From NCBI GenBank assembly GCA_041697335.1, contig JBGUGD010000002.1:96001-160000 (forward strand): a DNA stretch of 64,000 nucleotides, in the 5' to 3' direction. This document shows positions 13,175 to 30,679 of the stretch, in pieces. Under the pieces are notes generated by a model that saw only the letters and a list, made by a program, of their open reading frames with translations, had not been told where the DNA came from and ran no database searches. Every line of letters begins with the position of its first letter. Position 1 is the first letter of the stretch. Source of the DNA: Vampirovibrionaceae bacterium NZW_1234. GTDB lineage: Bacteria > Cyanobacteriota > Vampirovibrionia > Vampirovibrionales > JAGQHJ01. The position numbers were made by a program, and so were the translations under genes.

Positions 13175-13489
13175 TCGGTTTTTAGAATGACTGTGCTTTG
13201 TTCACTGCCTCTGGATTGTTACGGGCTTGAGTTCCGCTGCCCGGACTTGTGCCATTAAATAGGCACTGAGTGAATCGTTGTTTGTCTTCTTGCGATGGGA
13301 TTGACTTTCCTGGTCAAACAGGGACAATGGAAGTCAATTGAGACTACCCAACAGAGAGCATAATCTAGCGCTGCTTGCGCCTTGTCCTCAAGGGTTTAAT
13401 GCCGGGTTACTGGCTTGGACTGCCCGTATGGCCGGGTTGCTATCTGGATAAGAGAGCAGTTGCCTTTTAAACAAGAGGTTAATGGTATC

Positions 13490-15352
13490 GTGATTGGACG
13501 GATAAAGCGATTTTTACTGGGTGCCCCTTTGGCAACCCATGCCGAAGAGCATCAGCGACTGAACGTGCCATTAGGTTTGGCTGTTTTTTCCTCCGATGCC
13601 TTATCTTCCACCGCCTATGCCACGGATGAAATCTTGCTTGCCTTGGCCGCTTCTACCTTTGCGGCCAGCGGAAATCTGTTGTCTTTGCCTGTGGCCCTGG
13701 CCATTTCAGTTTTGATCGCGATTGTGATTATTTCCTATCGCCAGATTATCCGGGCAAACCCACAGGGCGGTGGGACCTACATGGTGGCCAAAAATAACCT
13801 TGGGGTGGTGCCGAGCCATATCGCTGCCGCTTCTCTGCTGATTGACTATGTGTTGACCGTGTCCGTTAGTATTACGGCAGGGATTGCGGCGATTACTTCT
13901 ACAGGGATCCTGCCCCACGCCCAGGTCACCAGCCTATCCATTATCGCAGCCCTGATTATTATGCTGATGAATTTGCGGGGTTTGAAAGAATCCGGTAAAG
14001 CATTTGCCTTTCCGGCTTACACATTTCTGTTCAGCATGGGGGCGCTTATTTTTACCGGGATTTACAAAGCGGTCACCCAGGAACACGTTAATTTGGGGTC
14101 TTTTACCACCAGTGCTACCCATTTGACAGATACCACCGGCGGGGATCTCATTAATTTGACGTTGATTCTGGTCTTGTTAAAGGCATTTTCCCATGGCTGT
14201 GCCGGTCTTACGGGGATTGAGGCCGTTGCAGACGGGGTCAAAGCGTTTCAAGATCCGGCCCCAGCACGGGCGAATAAGACGATGGCCGTGATGGGGATTT
14301 TGTTGATTTCCATCTTCTTGAGCATTACGTTTTTGGCGTTTTCATTCCATGTGATGCCCAAGGCCGATGAAACGATTATTTCCCAGGTGGCTCGCGCCGT
14401 TTTTGGGGGCGGCACATTTTTCTACATGCTGGTTCAGTTTTCAACCATGATTCTGCTGGTGCTGGCCGCTAACACGGCATTTGCAGATTTCCCGAGGGTC
14501 GCCAGCTTTTTGGCAAATGATGGGTATTTGCCACGCCAGATGATGAACCTGGGCGATCGCCTTGTTTATAACAACGGTATTATGCTGCTCAGCCTCTTGT
14601 CGATTTTCTTAATCTGGTTTTTTCAGGGCAATACACACTCGCTGATTCCGCTATATGCTGTAGGCGTATTTATTTCGTTTACTTTGTCGCAATCCGGTAT
14701 GGTGCTGCACCACCGTCGTGTTCGTGAGCCCGGCTGGAAGCAGGGGGCTTTTATCAATGGCTTTGGTGCTGTGATTACGGCATTTGTTAGCATCATATTA
14801 GCCTTTGAGAAATTCACGGAAGGGGCCTGGATTATCTTTGTGGCTATTCCGTTGATTATGTGGATGTTTCGGGCGATTAAGCGGCACTATCTGTCTGTGG
14901 CTCGCCAGTTGGTATTGCCGGAGGACTCCGCCTACTGCCCAGTTGGTGTCGAGCATACGGTCTTGGTCCTGGTTTCGTCTTTAAATCGTGGCACCATTCC
15001 GGCGTTGCAGTATGCGCAAAGCATTTCCGGCCGAGTGGAAGCGGTTCATGTGAAAGTGAACCCACAAGCGACAGAGCGGCTTCAGAAGGCCTGGGAGAAG
15101 TGGGGCTGTAATATGACCCTGACGATCCTGGATTCACCGTATCGTTCTATTCATGAACCTTTGTTGGACTACATTACCGAGGTTGAAAAACGTCACGAGC
15201 ACGATTTGGTCACGATTGTTATCCCCGAATTTGTTACCAAACGCTGGTGGCACAACCTCATGCACAATCAATCCGCCATTTTTATCAAGACCCTGCTGCG
15301 CCAACAAAAGGGGAAAGTCGTCACGACAGTGCGCTATTATCTCGAAGAGTAG
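13490..15352 (+). CDS. APC-family transporter, KimA/YdaO-like K+ importer
   Basis: FSSDALSSTAYATDEI, GGGTY, LLIDYVLTVSVS, LTGIEAVADGV, DFPRVAS and cytoplasmic tail SPYRS...IPEFVTKRWWHNLMHNQ. Confidence 0.88.
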   Translation: MIGRIKRFLLGAPLATHAEEHQRLNVPLGLAVFSSDALSSTAYATDEILLALAASTFAASGNLLSLPVALAISVLIAIVIISYRQIIRANPQGGGTYMVAKNNLGVVPSHIAAASLLIDYVLTVSVSITAGIAAITSTGILPHAQVTSLSIIAALIIMLMNLRGLKESGKAFAFPAYTFLFSMGALIFTGIYKAVTQEHVNLGSFTTSATHLTDTTGGDLINLTLILVLLKAFSHGCAGLTGIEAVADGVKAFQDPAPARANKTMAVMGILLISIFLSITFLAFSFHVMPKADETIISQVARAVFGGGTFFYMLVQFSTMILLVLAANTAFADFPRVASFLANDGYLPRQMMNLGDRLVYNNGIMLLSLLSIFLIWFFQGNTHSLIPLYAVGVFISFTLSQSGMVLHHRRVREPGWKQGAFINGFGAVITAFVSIILAFEKFTEGAWIIFVAIPLIMWMFRAIKRHYLSVARQLVLPEDSAYCPVGVEHTVLVLVSSLNRGTIPALQYAQSISGRVEAVHVKVNPQATERLQKAWEKWGCNMTLTILDSPYRSIHEPLLDYITEVEKRHEHDLVTIVIPEFVTKRWWHNLMHNQSAIFIKTLLRQQKGKVVTTVRYYLEE

Positions 15353-21800: not shown

Positions 21801-23546
21801 ATGCCTTCTTTTGTAATGCTTTTTAAACCCAAATACCGGTTTATGCTGGTCTCGGGGGTTGTAAGCGCCTCTGTTTTTTTAGTCGCAAACGTGTCGATAT
21901 GGGCACAAGTTCCTACTCAGGCTAATCCGGGTGTTTTGCTGCCTGCACCTACTGTGCAGGTGCGTCAAGAGCAGCAGCAGACCCAATCAAAGTCACTACC
22001 TTCAACACAAAACACGCCAGAAAAAACAACGTTGGATCGGCCGGACGATTTATCTTCCGTGGCCATTCCTGAGGTCCGGTTTTACCTGGACAAACTGATG
22101 GTTGAGGGCAGTACGCTTCTGTCATCAAAAGATTTGGAAGCACTGATGGCGCCCTATGAGAAGCGAGAAGTTACTTTTGACGATCTGAATCAGGCAGCGG
22201 CCAAGTTGCGGGCGTATTATCACGACAAAGGGTATTTCACCACCTATGTATTTATTCCCCCCCAGGACGTGGATGACGGGATCCTTCGTATCAAGGTCCT
22301 GGAAGGCCGCCTTGGGAAGCTATCAGTAGACAAGAATCGATATTATCGGGATTTTGTCGTTACACGACAGTTTCGGGCCAAGGCGGGCCAATTGTTTAAT
22401 TACAAAACCTTTGAAGAGGATATTAATTTAGCCAATCAACTGGCTCCGTACCAGGTGAAGGCTGTTCTGAATAAAGGAGAGCATTCTGGAGAAACCGACA
22501 TTACGCTCAATGTGGTTGATAAGCAGCCATGGCAAATTTCGTTAACCGGCGATAACCAAGGACGCCCCTTTATTGGGATGTATCGCGGCGGCGTTGATGT
22601 TACCAATCAAAGTTTGCTGGGACTGGGTGATCGCCTTTTTACCCGGTATTATGGGGCCTCCGGAACACAAGTGGTGATGGGATCCTACAGTGTTCCAGTT
22701 AACCGTTTTGGTGATGAGGTTAGTGTTAACTACAGTTACAGCCATGTTGATGTTGACTTAGGCTTGAATGTTCCCCAACAACCCATTGTAGGGACCGCGA
22801 AAAGCTATGGCATCGCTTATTCTCACCCTCTCAATAAAAAACGTTCGCTGGTGTCCGATATCGGGCTCAATCTGCGGACGATTGATTCCCGGGTTGATAG
22901 TACACGCGTTAGCCATGACGAAATTCGAACCCTTCAGGCCGGAATCTCGTTTAATGAATCCGATCGCCTGGGCCGAACATCGGGGCGTTTGCAGCAGACG
23001 GTGGGCATCGGGTTTTTGGGCGGAAACCGGCAATTTTTCAAGTCTGAAGCCATGGTCACCCGCTTATTGCGACTTTCTGAATCAAATACCTTGATTTTAA
23101 AAGGCTATGGCCAGCTGACACCCGATGCGCTGCCCACCGCCGAAGCCTTTCAGATTGGCGGCGCTTACAGTGTTCGAGGCTATACAGAGGGGCTGTTGAT
23201 TGCAGATCGGGGATTTTCGTTCAGTGCGGAAGATCGGTTTCCCATTCCATTTTTAAGCCGCATATCCCCCAAGATGAACAATCGGTTACAAGGCGCAGCC
23301 TTTTTTGATGTGGGGCGGGTGTGGCTGGATTCCAGCAACTCCCGTTTCGGTGCAGCATCGAATCAGGCGAAGAATTCACTTCTAATGAGTGTCGGTGTTG
23401 GCGTTCGTGCTCGACTGACCCGCTTTGTTCAGGGCTTTGCCGATTTGGGGGTGGGTTTAGGGGACAGAAACGGCGTAACCCGTCCCAACGGCGATCCGAC
23501 GGTACGGCTTCACTTTGGGCTTCGTTCCAACCTGCTGCCTGAATAA
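21801..23546 (+). CDS. ShlB/FhaC/HecB-family two-partner secretion transporter (TpsB)
   Basis: POTRA (VEGSTLLS...YHDKGYFTTYVFIPPQDVDDGILRIKVLEGRLG), barrel motif FQIGGAYSVRGY, AAFFDVG. Confidence 0.92.
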   Translation: MPSFVMLFKPKYRFMLVSGVVSASVFLVANVSIWAQVPTQANPGVLLPAPTVQVRQEQQQTQSKSLPSTQNTPEKTTLDRPDDLSSVAIPEVRFYLDKLMVEGSTLLSSKDLEALMAPYEKREVTFDDLNQAAAKLRAYYHDKGYFTTYVFIPPQDVDDGILRIKVLEGRLGKLSVDKNRYYRDFVVTRQFRAKAGQLFNYKTFEEDINLANQLAPYQVKAVLNKGEHSGETDITLNVVDKQPWQISLTGDNQGRPFIGMYRGGVDVTNQSLLGLGDRLFTRYYGASGTQVVMGSYSVPVNRFGDEVSVNYSYSHVDVDLGLNVPQQPIVGTAKSYGIAYSHPLNKKRSLVSDIGLNLRTIDSRVDSTRVSHDEIRTLQAGISFNESDRLGRTSGRLQQTVGIGFLGGNRQFFKSEAMVTRLLRLSESNTLILKGYGQLTPDALPTAEAFQIGGAYSVRGYTEGLLIADRGFSFSAEDRFPIPFLSRISPKMNNRLQGAAFFDVGRVWLDSSNSRFGAASNQAKNSLLMSVGVGVRARLTRFVQGFADLGVGLGDRNGVTRPNGDPTVRLHFGLRSNLLPE

Positions 23547-23686: not shown

Positions 23687-24166
23687 ATGAATGTGACAGC
23701 CAAGACAACCGATGTGCCGAGAACCAATTCGGCACCGCTGAGCAAGCCGGTCGAATCCAAGTCAACCTCTGCTCAAGGGTCCGGGACGGCCAAGGCGACG
23801 ACCTCAGCAACCACGACTCCGCAAAGTCGGGAAGAGCGCATTAAGGATTTGGAATCTCAAATCGATAAGATGAAGTCGACGCTGGAATCCTTCAAATCCT
23901 TGGCCGCTAAGCAAACACAAGCGCCTAAGCCTGCACAGGGCCAATCATTGCAATCTGGAAATGCACTATCGTCCTTGCTACCATTTTCGAACTTGTCCTT
24001 CTCCTCGAATCAGCGGCAGCCCTCGCTGTTTAATCCGGAGAATGCCGGTGGTTTCCAGGTGGATCCCTTCTTTTTGCAGTCCAAGCCCAATCCTTTTGGG
24101 GCCGGTGAGAGTCTGATTGTTCAGGTTCTGCCCTATGGTGTTGAGCCTTCCGGTGGCGGCGAATAA
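23687..24166 (+). CDS. Hypothetical Ser/Thr-rich protein with short coiled coil
   Basis: Strong AGGAGG RBS; 159-aa ORF. Confidence 0.7.
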   Translation: MNVTAKTTDVPRTNSAPLSKPVESKSTSAQGSGTAKATTSATTTPQSREERIKDLESQIDKMKSTLESFKSLAAKQTQAPKPAQGQSLQSGNALSSLLPFSNLSFSSNQRQPSLFNPENAGGFQVDPFFLQSKPNPFGAGESLIVQVLPYGVEPSGGGE

Positions 24167-24286
24167 TTGGATTGTTGAAACCGCCTGACATGCGCAGCGG
24201 GCAGCGACGTTACAAAGTGTAACAGTTTTTGTACCTGATATCTTCAAGGATAGTCAGGGATGTGTTTTTGCGGTAATCTGCATTTT

Positions 24287-24475
24287 GGTAAGTAGAGGTG
24301 CAGTTTCCAAGAGTATGCTTATCCCAGACGGTTGAACGTCGTAACGAGGGTAAGACGAAAGGGGAAACCTGCCGAAACGATAAGCCCATTCAACGGGGTG
24401 CATCGTTGGTCGATGAGGCTAAATCCTCCCGACTGTCTTGAAAGACTTCCGGGTCTTTCAAGGAGCGCTATTGCC
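24287..24475 (+). ncRNA. Lysine riboswitch (L-box)
   Basis: Conserved elements in order: AGAGGTGC, AAGAGTA, GAAAGG, GCCGAAA, TTGG, GACTGTC, GGAGCGCTA. L2/L3 kissing complement gttgaa/ttcaac; P5 ttgaaagac/gtctttcaa; P1 ggtaa-tag/ctattgcc. Confidence 0.9.
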
Positions 24476-24572
24476 ACCGGTAGGACTTTTTCTCAGGGTC
24501 CTTGTGAACGGTGAAGGCGTTTTACTTGCCTTCAGAGTCCCCCCTCAACCGTTCCCCTGATAGGTCCCGCTG

Positions 24573-26510
24573 ATGTCCCTCGACATTTCTCCAGCACCAA
24601 TCCGAATGACTCCCCCTCGGGTGTCGGGTGTTGTGGTGCCACCGCAACATTCAGGGCAACAGCATCGCCAGGTGTCTTCGCCGCGTTTTGGCAACGGGCT
24701 GATGAACGGGGCGGATCGCTTTGTCAGTTGGTTTGTGCGGAATTTATACGATCGGGGGGAAGGGTTTCGGTATCTCGTTGAGCAGACCTTGGGCTATACG
24801 GCTCCCCGCACGATTCAGCAATTAAACCGCACTCGCTCCATTACGGGTAAAGGCAATGAAATGGCTGCCCAGGAAATGTTGATTCGGGACTTGGCTGCCG
24901 ATTTCACCGATACCATCCTGCCAGGACTGATTGCCACGTTCGGTGTTGGCTGGGTCATGGATCGGATGGGTAAAACTCTGTTGCAACGTAATATGGGGCA
25001 TGATGCGCTGGCTTTTTATCAGCATATGGCCCGGGGTGCCAAAGGCGCCGCTGTCAGCCAAGCCGAGTTTTATCAGGGCATTGAAACCCGACTCACCGAC
25101 TTTGCCAAAGCCTCGAAGGCCACACCGGCAAAAGCGTTGAATTTGAAAGCGCTCATCAACGAGATGCGCAGCAGCAAGCATATTGAGGATGTGGAAAAAA
25201 CCATCGCCACGCGTTTAGGCCTGAGCCACTATGACGTTAAACTGGCCTATGGCAATAAGAAGCATTTGGAATTGCCCTTGCGGGATTTGGTCAAAGATCT
25301 GTGGCATATTCGCCAAGGCGTAAAAACGTCCAATGTCGGCAATGCCTGGGGCAAAGAAGCGCTCGCCATGGTCCAAAAAACGGCCGGTAAAATGAAGTGG
25401 CAAATGCTTGGCAATGTGGCGGCATTGGTGGCCAGTATCAGCATTCCCTTTGTTGTGCGACTCATTACAAAACGCGTCTATGGCAAAGATGCATTTCCGG
25501 GGACCAAGGAATTGGAAGAGCACTTTAAAACCCCTGAGGCAAAGAAAGCCCAGGATTCCAAGCGATTTGTCTGGTTTCCCTATCTTCAGGAGACCCTGAA
25601 AAACGGTAACTGGACACCGCTGGCCATCACGGCTGGGTTTTTTGCCGTTCTGGGTGGTGTGGTGCTGCGCCGGTTTCATTTGGCCAAAGGCAGCATCTTC
25701 CGATTTAAAGACTGGGTCAAAGTCTATGAGTTTCAGCGTCACTTTCCGTTTACCACCGTGACCCAGATGGAGCTGACCTATGGACTGTTATGCGGCATGC
25801 GTCTTGCAGCCAGCCGGGATCAGGCCGAGTTTCGTGAAACGGCAATCCGTGACTGTCTCCTGGGTTGGCCCACGTTGACCTACTTCTTCCCGATGTTTCG
25901 CAAGTTCTTAAGCCAGCAGTTTAACCAGCGCTTTTTGACCAAAAAGTTTCGCACCCCCAATTTGCTCATCAAGCCTAATGGCGAGGTTCGAGGCAGTCAT
26001 GAAATGACCCCGGAATTATTTAAAACCATGGGGCTGGGAGCAAAAGCAAGCACTGCCGTTCAGTCTGCCAAAAAATATCAATCCTGGATTACGTTTATTT
26101 CAGCGCTGACATCGTGGGTGATGTTGGCCTTTGCGGAGCCTCAGTTGGGTATTTGGCTCACCAACTCATTGGAGTTGCGGCGCTTAAAAGGGCTGTCGCA
26201 GCAGAAAGGGCAGGAAGCATCAACAGCAACTTCCCAGAGCCAAGAGAATCAGGAACCGCTTGAAGGATCAAAGCCATCTCATGCATCCCAACGTTGGGCG
26301 ACCGAATCACTGGCTGAGCTGGACCACCATCAGCCCGCAGTGATGTCCATGCCTGCCATAACGCCACTTCAGTCTGCTTATGAAGCCAACACAAATGGCT
26401 ATTCGATTTATCCTGCAGGTAATTGGGCTTCTGCCTGGAATGGTTGGCAGCCCATTCCTTATACCCCTGCAGCATATTCCCAGGCCTCGTATCCACATTA
26501 CGCATCATAA
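24573..26510 (+). CDS. Hypothetical multi-pass membrane protein downstream of the lysine riboswitch; N-terminal PRFG motif
   Basis: 645-aa ORF with several hydrophobic helices and disordered termini. Confidence 0.85.
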   Translation: MSLDISPAPIRMTPPRVSGVVVPPQHSGQQHRQVSSPRFGNGLMNGADRFVSWFVRNLYDRGEGFRYLVEQTLGYTAPRTIQQLNRTRSITGKGNEMAAQEMLIRDLAADFTDTILPGLIATFGVGWVMDRMGKTLLQRNMGHDALAFYQHMARGAKGAAVSQAEFYQGIETRLTDFAKASKATPAKALNLKALINEMRSSKHIEDVEKTIATRLGLSHYDVKLAYGNKKHLELPLRDLVKDLWHIRQGVKTSNVGNAWGKEALAMVQKTAGKMKWQMLGNVAALVASISIPFVVRLITKRVYGKDAFPGTKELEEHFKTPEAKKAQDSKRFVWFPYLQETLKNGNWTPLAITAGFFAVLGGVVLRRFHLAKGSIFRFKDWVKVYEFQRHFPFTTVTQMELTYGLLCGMRLAASRDQAEFRETAIRDCLLGWPTLTYFFPMFRKFLSQQFNQRFLTKKFRTPNLLIKPNGEVRGSHEMTPELFKTMGLGAKASTAVQSAKKYQSWITFISALTSWVMLAFAEPQLGIWLTNSLELRRLKGLSQQKGQEASTATSQSQENQEPLEGSKPSHASQRWATESLAELDHHQPAVMSMPAITPLQSAYEANTNGYSIYPAGNWASAWNGWQPIPYTPAAYSQASYPHYAS

Positions 26511-26787
26511 AGGTTTCTAACGAATGCGTTGATTCAAAAACTCTTGCTTCAATTGGATTAAGATTAGGAGCAAGCTCAAGAATATGGTCACATCATCCTA
26601 TTGGGAATTGTATGCCATAACAAACATTTTAAATTCGGGCAAGCCCCTCCGGTCTAGGTTCAAGATTCAGACTGGAGTTTGATCCAAGACACCGATTTGA
26701 AGTGTTACAGTATTAACATACAAGCCCAACCCCCCTGGCCCCGTGCCTAAGATAGAGAAGAAGACGTAAGAGAAGGGAGAGGAATCA

Positions 26788-27000
26788 ATGACACCTGCTG
26801 CTTTTTCACAGTACCAAACGAATCGTGATCTGGAACGCCAGGTCTATGACTGTGTCATGCAAGGCCTCACCTGTGATGGTATTGCCCAAAGGCTTCAATT
26901 GGACCCCGTTTTAACCCGTCAGCTGGTCAACCATATCCTGGCCAAACTGTGCCTGGATACGGGTGTGAAACAAGCGTTGACATCCCTTTGGGCCTATTAA
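26788..27000 (+). CDS. Small stand-alone LuxR-like HTH protein
   Basis: ERQVYDCVMQGLTCDGIAQRLQL...VNHILAKL fits the LuxR HTH pattern; GGAGAGG RBS. Confidence 0.65.
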   Translation: MTPAAFSQYQTNRDLERQVYDCVMQGLTCDGIAQRLQLDPVLTRQLVNHILAKLCLDTGVKQALTSLWAY

Positions 27001-27065: not shown

Positions 27066-27097
27066 CGCAAAGACCTGACCGTCTTTGCGTTTTTTTT
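27066..27097 (+). terminator. Intrinsic terminator
   Basis: cgcaaagac-ctgacc-gtctttgcg followed by a T run. Confidence 0.85.
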
Positions 27098-27271: not shown

Positions 27272-30200
27272 ATGTTGAATGATTTTCTGGCGTCGACGTT
27301 GCCCTTGAAAACGGAAAAGCGGAGTCGGGATGGCGTGGTGGATCTGTCGATCCGCCCGAGAAAAGATTCTTCAACACTCGATTTATTAGCGCTGGGTATG
27401 GATTCCCCTATGGATGAAGCTGACACGGGCTTTTCCGGTGGTGGTATTCCCACTCTGCCGGAGGATAAACCGCGTACTTCACGTCGAGGTGTAATGCCCT
27501 GGGTGGCTCGTAATTATAATAATGCCTTGGTGTCGAATGGGCCGGTCATGTTTGTTAATAATGTTCCTGCCGATGACAAACCCCAGAAAACCAAGCCGCA
27601 AGTGCAACGGGAATTTCTGCAAAACATTTATCAGGTTATTGGTATCTGGAATCGGCGGATTGCTGCTCTTGAAAATCATATTGAGACAGTGATGCCTGGA
27701 AAAATTAAGGTAGCACAGGCCAGAGTAACTGAACTATCAAAAGATGCCGACTTTGTGGCGTTTCCTGCACGTATGAAAAAACTGCAGGACATTGATGAGC
27801 AGATTGCAGCTCTCATGGAAGAGGCCTCTGGGCTTCGAGAGAAACAGGTCACCGATGGCCTTGGGTCGGGTAAAAGTAAAAATCAGATCCGTCGCGAAGA
27901 GATTCAAAAAGAAGTTCTGGAGCTTCAGGTAAAGCGCCGTAAGCTTTGGCCAGATGTCATTAAAAGCCAACAGGCCATGATCAATGTTGAAAAAGCAAAA
28001 CAGGATGTTAAAGATTTGGAATCCCAGATTCCCTATTTTAAAAAGGATCTGGAGGTTTACAAGAAAGCCGTTGAGGAATTAGGTACAGCTGAAAAAGGCA
28101 AGCTCAAGCTCAAGGGTAATCCATTTAAGATGGATAAAGTGGATCAGGAGGTCCTGGATGTCATCAATAATTTTGCCAAGAACAGCAAACGCTATGATCC
28201 CAGTGAACTCCTTGAAGCCTTGGCTGGCAAAGGAATTCTGAGCGATTCTCACAATCTTTATGTTCGCTATCTGCGAGGAAGCACGATTTCAGATCGTGAT
28301 ATTGCGTTAAACGGTGTTCACGATCACAAACGGGCAGGTGAGCTGCGTATCCGTAGCTTGGAAGCCGATTTGAAAACCTTGCAGCGGCGTCAGGCTAATG
28401 ACGAAACAGATTTGGCGATTCCCAAGGGCATTAAAAAAGACGGCTCCATTCCCATGACGGAAGCTGAGCTAGAGGCACTTGAGGAGATGGCCAGTGTTTA
28501 TGTGAACTTGATTGCTCTCTATAAGTTCAATCCCATCCACGGCAGTATCCTGATGGCGGACTTGTGGGATATGAACAGCCGTATGATGAATGGGAACCCT
28601 TCAACCAATATGCTCAAGCTTTTTGGTGAAGCGGTGAAAGACTATGCCAAATCCGGTAAGGTCGTGGAAGATGCGGCCGAAGGATTCATTATGGGGTTGG
28701 TCTTTCGCGGTGCGGCTGCCGTTGTCGGCGGTCCTGTTGTGGCGGTTGTGGGTGCCATTATGATGGCGGTTATGGCGGGTGGCCTCCGTAACAAGCTTGA
28801 ATCCATTATCAATATGACCCGAAACGTGGATGACACGATTCTGGATGGCGATAGTGACGAGGTTAAAAAGAAGAAAAACGACCTCTTTACCCAACGCCAG
28901 GCCAAGGCTATGAAAGAGTTTATGCAGCACGATGTGATTCCGATTCTGCCGCAGTTGCTGGGTGGCCTGGGTGCCGGAAAGATTGGTGCCAAAGGAAAAA
29001 GCCCGGTTCTTGCCGATGCGAGCCGTCGTGCCAACTTTGCAGGCGAGAAAGCCAAAATTGCTCGGGGGCGGGCAACAGCGCTTGAGGCTGAGGCCGCTCG
29101 TGCAAAACGACTGGCTGATACCTCGAAAAGTCCGCAGGATATTGCTCGTGCCAACCGACTCGCTGAAATTGCCGAACGTCTGAAAAAGGCTGCCACGGAA
29201 GCAGAAACCAAGGCGGCGGATGCCAAGTCCAAGTTGCCGGAATTGGCGGAAGCTGTTAAAGAAGCTGAAAAGGCTACAAAAGAATATATGCGGGCCAAAA
29301 AATCGGGCAACAGGCCTGCCCTGGAAGCGGCTGAAGCCAAGCTGAAAGCGGCTATGGAAAAGGTGCAGCGTCTCCAGGATACGGTCGGCAGAAACAATAA
29401 AGTGCGGGCAATTGACGAAGCCCAACTTTCCGAGGGCAATATTGATATTCGTGCCAAAAACCAGAAACCGATGAGTTTATCCGAGGCGCCGCCCGATTCT
29501 CCGATGCGGACGGCCATGGAAAAAGCCGGTTTGTCTGAAGAGCAGGCCAAATTGATTGATCTCGAGTTTATTAGCTCAAACGAATCACCTTCATGCCAAA
29601 TGAAAAGTGATCGAATCAAAATCAAGCTGCCCAAGAACCCTGATGGAACGGTTCGGATTACGGATCTGGCGCATGAGCTGGCGGAAGCCAAAATGCGGCT
29701 TGAGGCTAAGACAAATCCCAAACTTGCGACGCAATTGGCTGAGGCTGAGCGCTTGGCGAAACGATACCAGGATGCTCAAAAAGCTTACCGGGAGGCCTTA
29801 GAAGAAGTGGGCAATCCAGAGGCTGTTCCTGAAAATATTCGTCAACAACTGGCGGAGGCTCGTTTTGCTTATGAAAACAGCCCCACGGAACTTCGGGCCA
29901 GAGCCGTCGAAATGGAGGCCTTGTCCAAACATGCTGAAAAATCATTTGATGCCACAGGGGGTGTCGATGAAAATCTACTCAACCTAACGGCCGAAGCCGG
30001 TGAGCAGGCTGCCAATTTAAAAACACGCCAACGGGCCATGGAACGATTCCGAGACGCCAGATCCGTTGAGGCTTTAGAAGCCGCTGAAGCCGAATTAACC
30101 AATGCCGGATACACGGATACGGAATTAGGGTTGCTCAGGACCTTAAAGGGCCTGCGCTCGGGTCTGATGTTCCCTGCCAATGCTACCGGGCCTCAAATTG

Positions 30201-30679
30201 CGTCTGCGCTAGGCGGTGAGTACGTAAAAACCGAATGGGGCGTTCACCAGATAAAAATGCCGGATGGCTCCTATCGTTTATATCCGGCATCCGAGGTGAC
30301 CGCAAGCAATCCGAAACGGGCGCCTAAATTGAAAACGGTCGATGCCAAAACCGCTAGTAATAGCGAAGCATTAGCCAAGGCTGCGAAGGATTGCCTGCGT
30401 GAAGCCTTGCCCACGGAGGCGGAGATCATCAGCTATTTGGAATCGCAAGGTTGGGAAGTCCGTGTGCATAGTGCGGGGAAGCATGGGAAGAACTATATTG
30501 CCACACGAGACGGTAAAACCAAGTATTTCTCCGTAGATAAAGGTAATCAGGGCAGTGGCGGTGATGCCGGTATTCCGCACCAGGGGACCAAGGGCGGAGT
30601 CGTTAAACTGTTTCCCGATGATTCGTATAATTTTGATAAACGCAAATATGGGACCGTTGATTTGGATCCGCTTAAATAA
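27272..30679 (+). CDS. Large polymorphic-toxin-like protein: coiled coils, hydrophobic hairpin, degenerate zincin motif, C-terminal Ntox21/colicin E3-like RNase domain
   Basis: GGAG RBS; GFIMGLVFRGAAAVVGGPVVAVVGAIMMAVMAGG; LAHELAE...PTELRAR; C-terminus YFSVD...H...GGVVKLF...KRKYGTVD. Confidence 0.65.
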   Translation: MLNDFLASTLPLKTEKRSRDGVVDLSIRPRKDSSTLDLLALGMDSPMDEADTGFSGGGIPTLPEDKPRTSRRGVMPWVARNYNNALVSNGPVMFVNNVPADDKPQKTKPQVQREFLQNIYQVIGIWNRRIAALENHIETVMPGKIKVAQARVTELSKDADFVAFPARMKKLQDIDEQIAALMEEASGLREKQVTDGLGSGKSKNQIRREEIQKEVLELQVKRRKLWPDVIKSQQAMINVEKAKQDVKDLESQIPYFKKDLEVYKKAVEELGTAEKGKLKLKGNPFKMDKVDQEVLDVINNFAKNSKRYDPSELLEALAGKGILSDSHNLYVRYLRGSTISDRDIALNGVHDHKRAGELRIRSLEADLKTLQRRQANDETDLAIPKGIKKDGSIPMTEAELEALEEMASVYVNLIALYKFNPIHGSILMADLWDMNSRMMNGNPSTNMLKLFGEAVKDYAKSGKVVEDAAEGFIMGLVFRGAAAVVGGPVVAVVGAIMMAVMAGGLRNKLESIINMTRNVDDTILDGDSDEVKKKKNDLFTQRQAKAMKEFMQHDVIPILPQLLGGLGAGKIGAKGKSPVLADASRRANFAGEKAKIARGRATALEAEAARAKRLADTSKSPQDIARANRLAEIAERLKKAATEAETKAADAKSKLPELAEAVKEAEKATKEYMRAKKSGNRPALEAAEAKLKAAMEKVQRLQDTVGRNNKVRAIDEAQLSEGNIDIRAKNQKPMSLSEAPPDSPMRTAMEKAGLSEEQAKLIDLEFISSNESPSCQMKSDRIKIKLPKNPDGTVRITDLAHELAEAKMRLEAKTNPKLATQLAEAERLAKRYQDAQKAYREALEEVGNPEAVPENIRQQLAEARFAYENSPTELRARAVEMEALSKHAEKSFDATGGVDENLLNLTAEAGEQAANLKTRQRAMERFRDARSVEALEAAEAELTNAGYTDTELGLLRTLKGLRSGLMFPANATGPQIASALGGEYVKTEWGVHQIKMPDGSYRLYPASEVTASNPKRAPKLKTVDAKTASNSEALAKAAKDCLREALPTEAEIISYLESQGWEVRVHSAGKHGKNYIATRDGKTKYFSVDKGNQGSGGDAGIPHQGTKGGVVKLFPDDSYNFDKRKYGTVDLDPLK

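Follow-up and report, generated by a model that had tools for sequence, protein, structure and literature searches.

What does a lysine riboswitch control when the gene behind it resembles no gene known to make or to move lysine? The question is raised by a 64,000-nucleotide stretch of the genome of Vampirovibrionaceae bacterium NZW_1234 (assembly GCA_041697335.1, contig JBGUGD010000002.1, positions 96,001 to 160,000; hereafter the window), in which a lysine riboswitch aptamer is followed by an open reading frame (ORF) for an all-helical, membrane-type protein of 645 amino acids (aa). A first-pass annotation, made from the letters of the sequence alone, had placed a complete aptamer about 100 nucleotides (nt) upstream of this protein, and had proposed that the latter is either a new lysine transporter or an exported protein that inserts into a host or prey membrane and releases lysine. 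Here, we report that the riboswitch and the 645-aa gene form one conserved two-part module with exclusive linkage, and that the protein belongs to an undescribed superfamily restricted to Melainabacteria, relatives of the cyanobacteria that do not photosynthesise. Our tentative reading is that it transports lysine or lets it permeate, and that lysine probably represses its production.

A complete lysine riboswitch, present once in the genome

The aptamer matched the Rfam Lysine model (RF00168) with 81.7 bits (E 8e-20), far above the curated gathering score of 30 bits, and did so over model positions 1-182 of 182, that is, without truncation. The covariance search that the first-pass annotation had proposed as a check therefore upheld its call of a complete aptamer. 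The conserved core strings AGAGGUGC, GAGUA, GAAAGGGG, GCCGAA, CUGUC and GGAGCGCUA were all found in the printed RF00168 alignment. Moreover, when eight related aptamers were aligned and folded together (L005, which is cut at a contig start, being omitted), 22 of the 37 predicted pairs had undergone compensatory double changes with the pair kept, and such changes on both sides argue that folding of the aptamer is maintained in the relatives. On this combination of model match and covariation, we consider the element to be a genuine and complete lysine riboswitch, for which lysine binding itself is predicted. A search of the whole genome (3.70 Mb in 41 contigs, 94.75% complete) exposed exactly one RF00168 match, that of the window, and none of the lysine biosynthesis genes of this genome had a riboswitch in that search.

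The riboswitch is linked exclusively to one gene

Within the window, the start of the 645-aa ORF lies 94 nt 3′ of the aptamer on the same strand, close to the distance first estimated, and the two adjoin without an intervening gene (Table 1). The same arrangement, with RF00168 directly upstream on the same strand, was present in all four species-representative genome loci, which have protein identities to the query of 49, 41, 35 and 33% and riboswitch scores of 93.7, 58, 48.9 and 73.5 bits, respectively. Five metagenome loci were also recovered; two of these were cut and had no upstream DNA, one had the riboswitch (68.4 bits), and two did not.

The order-wide search covered 49 genomes, including the one under study. 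Orthologue-level scores to the family profile (472-797 bits) were found in eight of the 49, the next best score anywhere in the order being 209 bits. RF00168 matches were identified in seven genomes, all of them among the eight orthologue carriers. The eighth carrier, G017, is identical in DNA to locus L003, the riboswitch of which matched with 48.9 bits, and the aptamer of G017 was lost to the stricter filters of the large-batch scan, which can drop weak matches. Each of the eight genomes, which span three families of the order, has a single riboswitch, which immediately precedes the orthologue in the same orientation, and no RF00168 was found in the other 41 genomes in the strict-filter scan, where weak matches may be lost. 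Additionally, RF00168 was present in five genomes of a class-wide sample of 151, every one of which also has the orthologue, and none of the 20 paralogue loci that we examined had any riboswitch. The riboswitch and the 645-aa gene are one conserved two-part module with exclusive linkage, and the specific tie between them proposed from the single locus was borne out in 8/8 orthologue-bearing genomes. As to whether homologues keep the riboswitch, a check suggested in the first-pass annotation, it was retained in these 8/8 genomes of the order and absent from two metagenome loci, L006 and L007.

A chance adjacency, with the aptamer a mere remnant or a regulator of something other than the 645-aa gene, is very improbable and indeed close to refuted. 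At the level of DNA, aptamer and orthologue co-occur in 8/8 cases across the three families and invariably adjoin each other on one strand, the fold of the aptamer is preserved by compensatory changes, and no other gene intervenes in the window.

The history of the module was traced in a quickly built maximum-likelihood tree, in which 38 homologues and 11 translations from loci were rooted on one paralogue (50 rows in total). Members with the riboswitch were placed on the deepest as well as on shallow branches across the whole orthogroup, and a fully supported clade of riboswitch-less members, which includes the tandem duplicate of L006, was nested inside it. Since the deepest branches bear the riboswitch and the riboswitch-less clade is nested, we tentatively suggest that the module was ancestral to the orthogroup and that the riboswitch was lost once, on a tree in which the root sits on a very long branch. 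The riboswitch-less homologues comprise a tandem pair in L006 (1825-3651 and 3869-5659) and a single gene in L007 (3860-5641), and in both loci a dual-specificity phosphatase-like gene precedes them.

Table 1. Coordinates, in the window, of the riboswitch, of the ORF and its parts, and of a downstream hairpin.
Feature	Position	Strand	Basis or remark
Lysine riboswitch aptamer, P1-P5	24285..24478	+	RF00168, 194 nt, full length
Expression platform, 94-nt leader from aptamer to start codon	24479..24572	+	Folding
Predicted riboswitch-controlled ORF, 645 aa, all-helical membrane-type protein	24573..26510	+	Profile and AlphaFold2
Disordered leader, aa 1-40, ending S36-P-R-F-G40 (24678-24692)	24573..24692	+	AlphaFold2
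Conserved core, aa 41-555	24693..26237	+	AlphaFold2, alignment
Low-complexity, poorly conserved C-terminal tail, aa 556-645	26238..26507	+	Alignment, AlphaFold2
Terminator-like hairpin, 9 bp then T8	27066..27089	+	Only good plus-strand site downstream of the gene

Placement of the protein in an undescribed superfamily

We found no significant match to the 645-aa protein in Pfam or NCBIfam (best E 0.03-0.1, far under the cut-offs), none in PADLOC or PHROGs, and none at E ≤ 1 between the family profile and PDB sequences. Specifically, the Pfam and NCBIfam profiles of known lysine transporters and exporters (APC/LysP, NhaC/LysW, LysE, ABC) did not match it, nor did the profiles of lysine biosynthesis enzymes (lysC, dapA, lysA and others). 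The earlier impression, gained by eye, that the protein resembles no known lysine gene family held throughout these searches. A full-text literature search returned nothing on a lysine riboswitch in Melainabacteria or Vampirovibrio, or on this module.

A word-indexed search returned 38 close homologues, all hypothetical and without Pfam domains, one of which is named from a "Cyanobacteria bacterium" metagenome-assembled genome. In a profile search over 1.84 billion representative proteins, 330 representative clusters were retrieved at E ≤ 1e-3, of which 146 remained at 1e-10 and 73 at 1e-30, with a score gap separating the orthogroup (>440 bits) from the remaining superfamily. Thirty distant members were scanned, and none (0/30) had any Pfam domain. 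The ESM Atlas returned only unnamed Melainabacteria clusters, and MTP18, its nearest named cluster (33% of members, score 0.78), was treated as a chance match. Based on these profile relationships, the 645-aa protein is placed as a member of an undescribed superfamily that is restricted to Melainabacteria. One paralogue, of 563 aa and 30% identity, is encoded in this same genome and has no riboswitch.

Weak matches to the profile were present in 13 of the 32 genomes of another family of the class, f7 (1.6-2.2 Mb; L038-L050), and were confined to its C-terminal half (profile positions ~360-560, E 1e-6 to 1e-17). Because the f7 genomes match this half alone, the conserved block of transmembrane (TM) helices TM4-TM6 may represent the ancient core of the superfamily.

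Protein architecture

The AlphaFold2 model, computed from the 38-row alignment, had a mean predicted local distance difference test score (pLDDT) of 81.6 and a predicted TM-score (pTM) of 0.75. The conserved core was mostly above pLDDT 90 and all-helical except for one beta hairpin, aa 564-645 were below 50 and disordered, and the C-terminal half (aa 257-560) reached pLDDT 90.9 when folded alone. Four robust hydrophobic helices were identified from Kyte-Doolittle peaks of both the protein and the family average (aa 107-129, 280-298, 347-365 and 503-529, the last being narrower, 503-521, in the family-averaged profile), and two weaker hydrophobic segments (aa 396-412 and 427-445) lie in or flank the most conserved block of the family, aa 396-445 (QMELTYGLLCG...RD...GWPTLTY). 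A soluble insert of ~120 aa is located at about aa 134-256. The several hydrophobic helices described in the first-pass annotation were therefore present, and the structural check that it had suggested yielded a confident model without a PDB relative by sequence or by fold.

A weak structural likeness to P-loop cation channels (NaK, NavRh, Kv, TRP) recurred, in that tetrameric pore domains made up ~14 of the 50 highest VIA-align rows of the C-terminal half and aligned to aa 437-521 as outer helix, short helix and inner helix. These alignments had Z-scores of 5-6.3, below the tool's meaningful level for helical proteins, and the family shows some of its lowest conservation in the loop that would have to serve as selectivity filter. 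We take the resemblance as a lead only, and not as membership. A two-copy prediction of aa 45-540 scored 0.00, was run without controls, and counts neither for nor against self-binding.

Residues that mark the lysine-linked orthogroup

To characterize what distinguishes the orthogroup, 44 of its members were compared with 38 paralogues. Residues common to both groups include E70, R79, R86, N95, E101, D113, Q398, R410, R415, E419, R421, E422, D427, E522, P523 and T530. Those specific to the orthogroup were mostly polar, replaced aliphatic ones, and lay within or beside the hydrophobic helices. They include D110 (Ile in 32/38 paralogues), E400 (Ala in 34/38), T436 (Ile in 34/38) and Y437 (Leu in 28/38), as well as Y59 (Ile, Leu or Val in paralogues), Y67 (Met or Leu), and T114, T402, Y403, G404, C407 and T434, at which paralogues usually have Asn, Leu, Phe, Ala, Ile and Leu, respectively. 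Two new acidic side chains and several hydroxyls in membrane-type helices would suit a site or pathway for a cationic amino acid. Within the alignment, D110 and D113 are lost in three of the four riboswitch-less homologues (AAGFTNT versus AADFxDT).

An N-terminal leader motif shared across the genome

The disordered leader ending in SPRFG that had been read from the sequence was recovered, with SPRFG at residues 36-40 of a segment, aa 1-40, modelled with pLDDT below 50. An aligned x-F-[G/Q/A/K/S] motif was present in 31 of the 38 family members. Four of the seven without it are gene models with truncated N-termini, and for two of these four the motif is encoded in frame in the upstream DNA. 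The leader of the 30%-identical paralogue reads SLRFGSG.

The motif extends well beyond this family, as counted in a crude set of 3082 non-overlapping ORFs. Specifically, 91 of 122 occurrences of [PL]RF[GQ] fell within the first 80 residues, versus an expected 23% and 11-30% for control motifs, and RF[GQ] was found within the first 80 residues of 256 of the 3082 ORFs. About 6-8% of the crude ORFs bear the leader, for which the consensus is [S/A/P]-[L/P/V/I]-R-F-[G/Q]-[A/S/G]. All synonymous codons are used for the motif, in roughly genomic proportions, and the DNA word CGN-TTY-GGN was enriched near gene starts in frame 0 only (199 versus 52 and 77) and nowhere else, so that selection acts on the peptide. 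What had been flagged as a candidate export motif is, as a motif, real, with N-terminal enrichment genome-wide at the protein level.

In terms of the proteins that carry it, 114 of 133 strict motif bearers were without a hydrophobic segment, and a hydrophobic stretch followed within 70 residues of the motif in only 9 of 146 bearers. The rarity of such stretches indicates that these leaders are not Sec signal peptides. When 20 strict bearers, drawn at random from the 146, were scanned against Pfam, ten gave no domain. Pfam-named bearers include M16 and trypsin-like peptidases, DUF885, adenosine-deaminase-like, SNF2, FtsH-like and AAA+ proteins, glutamate dehydrogenase and an NAPRTase-like protein, and long N-terminal extensions are seen in enzymes among them such as the latter two, the peptidases and AAA+. 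We propose the RFG leader as a candidate lineage-specific sorting tag, its sorting role being predicted.

Expression platform and switch logic

No intrinsic terminator, that is, a hairpin followed by a U-run, was found between the aptamer and the ATG of the 645-aa ORF, and no clear Shine-Dalgarno sequence precedes its start. The absence of a terminator from the leader points to control at translation or mRNA stability. In the minimum free energy fold, the last 20 nt of the leader are paired with nucleotides that directly follow P1, the helix that closes the aptamer. A Rho-site in the leader was considered and dropped, given 28 C versus 24 G.

A three-element switch search beat shuffled sequences only for the leader of relative L002, and modestly. 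There, the 3′ strand of P1 pairs with a downstream element at -21.8 kcal/mol (14/200 shuffles as good), and this element alternatively pairs over the start codon at -23.2 kcal/mol (6/200 shuffles as good). These predictions lend modest support to a classical OFF-type layout in L002, in which a sequestor would cover the start codon. The leaders of the window and of L001 share ACCGU, AACGGU and ACCGUU elements by eye, which were not significant. Since the L002 leader shows OFF architecture, OFF-type logic, and with it lysine-repressed translation, is weakly favoured by these folding models.

Leader lengths between aptamer and gene ranged from ~35 to ~700 nt among relatives. Aptamer and gene start lie 300-700 nt apart, a distance uncommonly large in an expression platform, in L025 (G035, 820-1512), L024 (G053, minus strand) and L026 (G122, minus strand).

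What the 645-aa protein may do

In the mechanism that we propose, lysine binding would stabilise the closing helix P1, upon which the leader would most likely refold and mask the start-codon region. Control would be exerted at translation or mRNA stability, and the protein would be made mainly when lysine is scarce. It would then move lysine across a membrane, presumably the inner one, with uptake or scavenging favoured over other directions of flux. We thus read the 645-aa protein, with a confidence slightly short of even, as a new lysine transport or permeation protein that is probably lysine-repressed. Transport is the best-supported function because of the regulatory logic, the pattern of acidic and hydroxyl residues, and precedent. 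In regard to the latter, orphan membrane proteins behind lysine riboswitches (LysW, YvsH) have reportedly been assigned as lysine transporters by the same logic.

Several results weigh against a resident, lysine-repressed transporter. No likeness to any transporter family or fold emerged from profile and structure searches, and no fold match rose above background, either for the whole model (Foldseek best E 0.09 at TM-score 0.10; VIA-align wide Z 5.8) or for the C-terminal half (Foldseek best E 1.0; VIA-align wide Z 6.3). The hydrophobicity of the helices is only moderate, their four highest peaks averaging 1.56, while the median is 2.25 and the 5th percentile 1.90 among 205 polytopic proteins of this genome, a set that was itself selected for strong hydrophobic peaks, and the positive-inside rule gives no clear topology. 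At least three hydrophobic segments were found in just 2 of 133 strict bearers of the leader motif (one of them the paralogue of the 645-aa protein) versus 232 of 2669 in the background, and a resident inner-membrane transporter fits poorly with a leader that otherwise marks mostly soluble proteins. In the case of the switch, a model comparing accessibility with P1 locked and P1 free found no difference in six leaders, including that of the window, and the duplex tests of the window leader were equalled by 156/200 and 31/200 shuffles. Finally, the homologue loci L006 and L007 (38-40% identity) had no riboswitch even at E ≤ 1, and no conserved operon partner was found.

Need for external lysine offers no ready rationale for the module. 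Genes for lysine synthesis were identified elsewhere in the genome at scores over their cut-offs (lysA 451 bits, dapA 304 bits, dapF 290 bits), and the organism is not an evident auxotroph, contrary to the possibility that had been raised for checking. Moreover, lysA was present in all 49 genomes of the order, in 46 over the cut-off and in three as contig-edge fragments. Because all 49 have lysA, auxotrophy does not explain the module, and it was ruled out as a reason for it. The module is an accessory trait, present in 8/49 lysine-prototrophic genomes.

An alternative that takes the RFG leader as an export tag would make the protein a pore or carrier, inserted in the envelope or in a prey or host membrane and switched on at low lysine. 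The leader motif on which this alternative builds is real, being kept in the 31/38 family members and in the 30%-identical paralogue, enriched at N-termini genome-wide and selected as a peptide. Its bearers are mostly non-membrane proteins without signal peptides, including orphans and enzymes with N-terminal extensions. The family is also expanded, with several paralogues per genome, and moderate helix hydrophobicity of the kind seen here is reportedly a property of transmembrane effectors that must avoid inner-membrane targeting. However, the export function of the leader and the machinery that would read it are hypothetical, and predation is not established for this organism. The presence of lysA in 49/49 genomes means that a lysine-harvesting weapon is not obviously needed, and the many charged and polar residues that are invariant across the 330 clusters suggest a housekeeping-type activity over a fast-evolving effector. 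We therefore regard export as unlikely. The narrower proposal of a lysine-riboswitch-controlled effector that is exported via an RFG-leader pathway and inserted in a prey or host membrane to release lysine is, in our estimation, quite unlikely, and a new lysine transporter is ranked higher than an exported prey-membrane protein.

A lysine-linked role other than transport, such as signalling or the modification of lipids or the envelope by a membrane sensor or enzyme that is required according to the lysine supply, is rather unlikely. It would account for the invariant charged residues that block aa 396-445 shares with paralogues (R410, R415, E419, R421, E422, D427), as in an active site or a gating network, and for an architecture of only four robust hydrophobic helices with a soluble insert of ~120 aa and a fold that matches no known transporter. 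Nevertheless, no catalytic motif or domain was recognised in Pfam, NCBIfam or PDB sequences, no conserved neighbouring enzyme genes were found, and orphan membrane proteins behind amino-acid riboswitches are, to our knowledge, usually transporters. Reversed logic was also considered, in which a surplus of lysine, as may arise when the cells grow on peptides, turns on the gene through an ON-type riboswitch and the protein acts to export lysine. Overflow control is plausible in an organism, and a whole order, that synthesise lysine, the acidic and hydroxyl helix residues fit a cationic-substrate carrier of either direction, and the models of the window leader settle neither ON nor OFF. The lysine riboswitches that we know to have been validated are, by contrast, OFF switches, the only statistically supported leader, that of L002, has OFF architecture, and Pfam and NCBIfam searches gave no similarity to the LysE or LysO families, which together render such an exporter distinctly improbable. 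Lysine transport or permeation, as set out above, is the reading that we retain.

Gene neighbourhood and setting

Downstream of the module, a 70-aa ORF (26788-27000, plus strand) had a faint LuxR/GerE-like match (E 0.07) and may be co-transcribed with the riboswitch-controlled gene, in which case the terminator-like hairpin, which follows it, may mark the end of the transcription unit. The next gene in this direction (27272-30679, plus strand) encodes a 1135-aa Lys/Glu/Ala-rich, coiled-coil-like protein without a Pfam or NCBIfam family. Just upstream of the module lies a gene for a ShlB/FhaC-type outer-membrane transporter of two-partner secretion (21801-23546, plus strand; POTRA_2 and ShlB, E 1e-28), with no recognisable TpsA passenger adjoining it, followed by a 159-aa Ser/Thr/Gln-rich ORF without a family (23687-24166).

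APC-family permeases were located convergently downstream of the orthologue in L003 (7931-9316, minus strand) and L004 (8556-9968, minus strand). In the window, an unusually long APC-family permease, also of 645 aa, is encoded ~9 kb upstream (13415-15352, plus strand). The proximity of such permeases to the module is suggestive at most.

With respect to setting, the Vampirovibrio-like affinity suggested by the first-pass annotation was supported, in that the order is shared with a Vampirovibrionales bacterium genome. The public sequencing runs that contain most of positions 24200-26600 are labelled as hot springs or microbial mat metagenomes (share 0.82). Because these runs may be the source sample itself, they provide no independent evidence of habitat.

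Significance and comparison with known systems

Few features of a sequence identify a ligand as directly as a riboswitch does, and the lysine riboswitch is the first functional clue for an orphan superfamily of 330 clusters for which neither a Pfam family nor a solved fold exists. Should the protein transport lysine, it would found a transporter family that is new, as would be its fold. Should it be exported, a metabolite sensor would be joined to the putative lineage-specific export tag that hundreds of proteins carry. If it further acts as an effector, it would be the first riboswitch-controlled effector of predation or parasitism, and also the first of the leader-tagged proteins for which a physiological cue is known. 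The module is compact, consisting of a 194-nt aptamer and one gene, is testable in E. coli, and offers an entry to the physiology of uncultured Vampirovibrionales.

Among known systems, the closest are the transporter genes of the L-box, which reportedly precedes lysP and yvsH (APC) and lysW (NhaC) in Firmicutes, Gammaproteobacteria and Thermotogae. The module resembles these in that a full-length aptamer of the same family lies in the untranslated 5′ region of one gene for a membrane-type protein, and differs in that its protein falls outside those families and is without a solved structural relative. It differs from L-box systems also in that the riboswitch in this lineage controls no biosynthesis gene and occurs only with the 645-aa gene. 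The E. coli lysC riboswitch is said to act on translation initiation and RNase E cleavage and not through an intrinsic terminator. The module likewise lacks an intrinsic terminator and has a region before the start that is base-paired in the predicted fold, whereas it has no recognisable Shine-Dalgarno sequence and another target gene, and its mechanism is derived from folding only. LysE and LysO (YbjE) are lysine-induced exporters of basic amino acids that are controlled by protein regulators and not by riboswitches. They are akin to the 645-aa protein in being small-to-medium helical membrane proteins, proposed in our case, for lysine flux, and are set apart from it by the lack of any sequence match and by the riboswitch control found here. 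The riboswitch is thus of a known kind, and its exclusive coupling to an undescribed family of no known fold, in a lineage otherwise without this riboswitch, is new.

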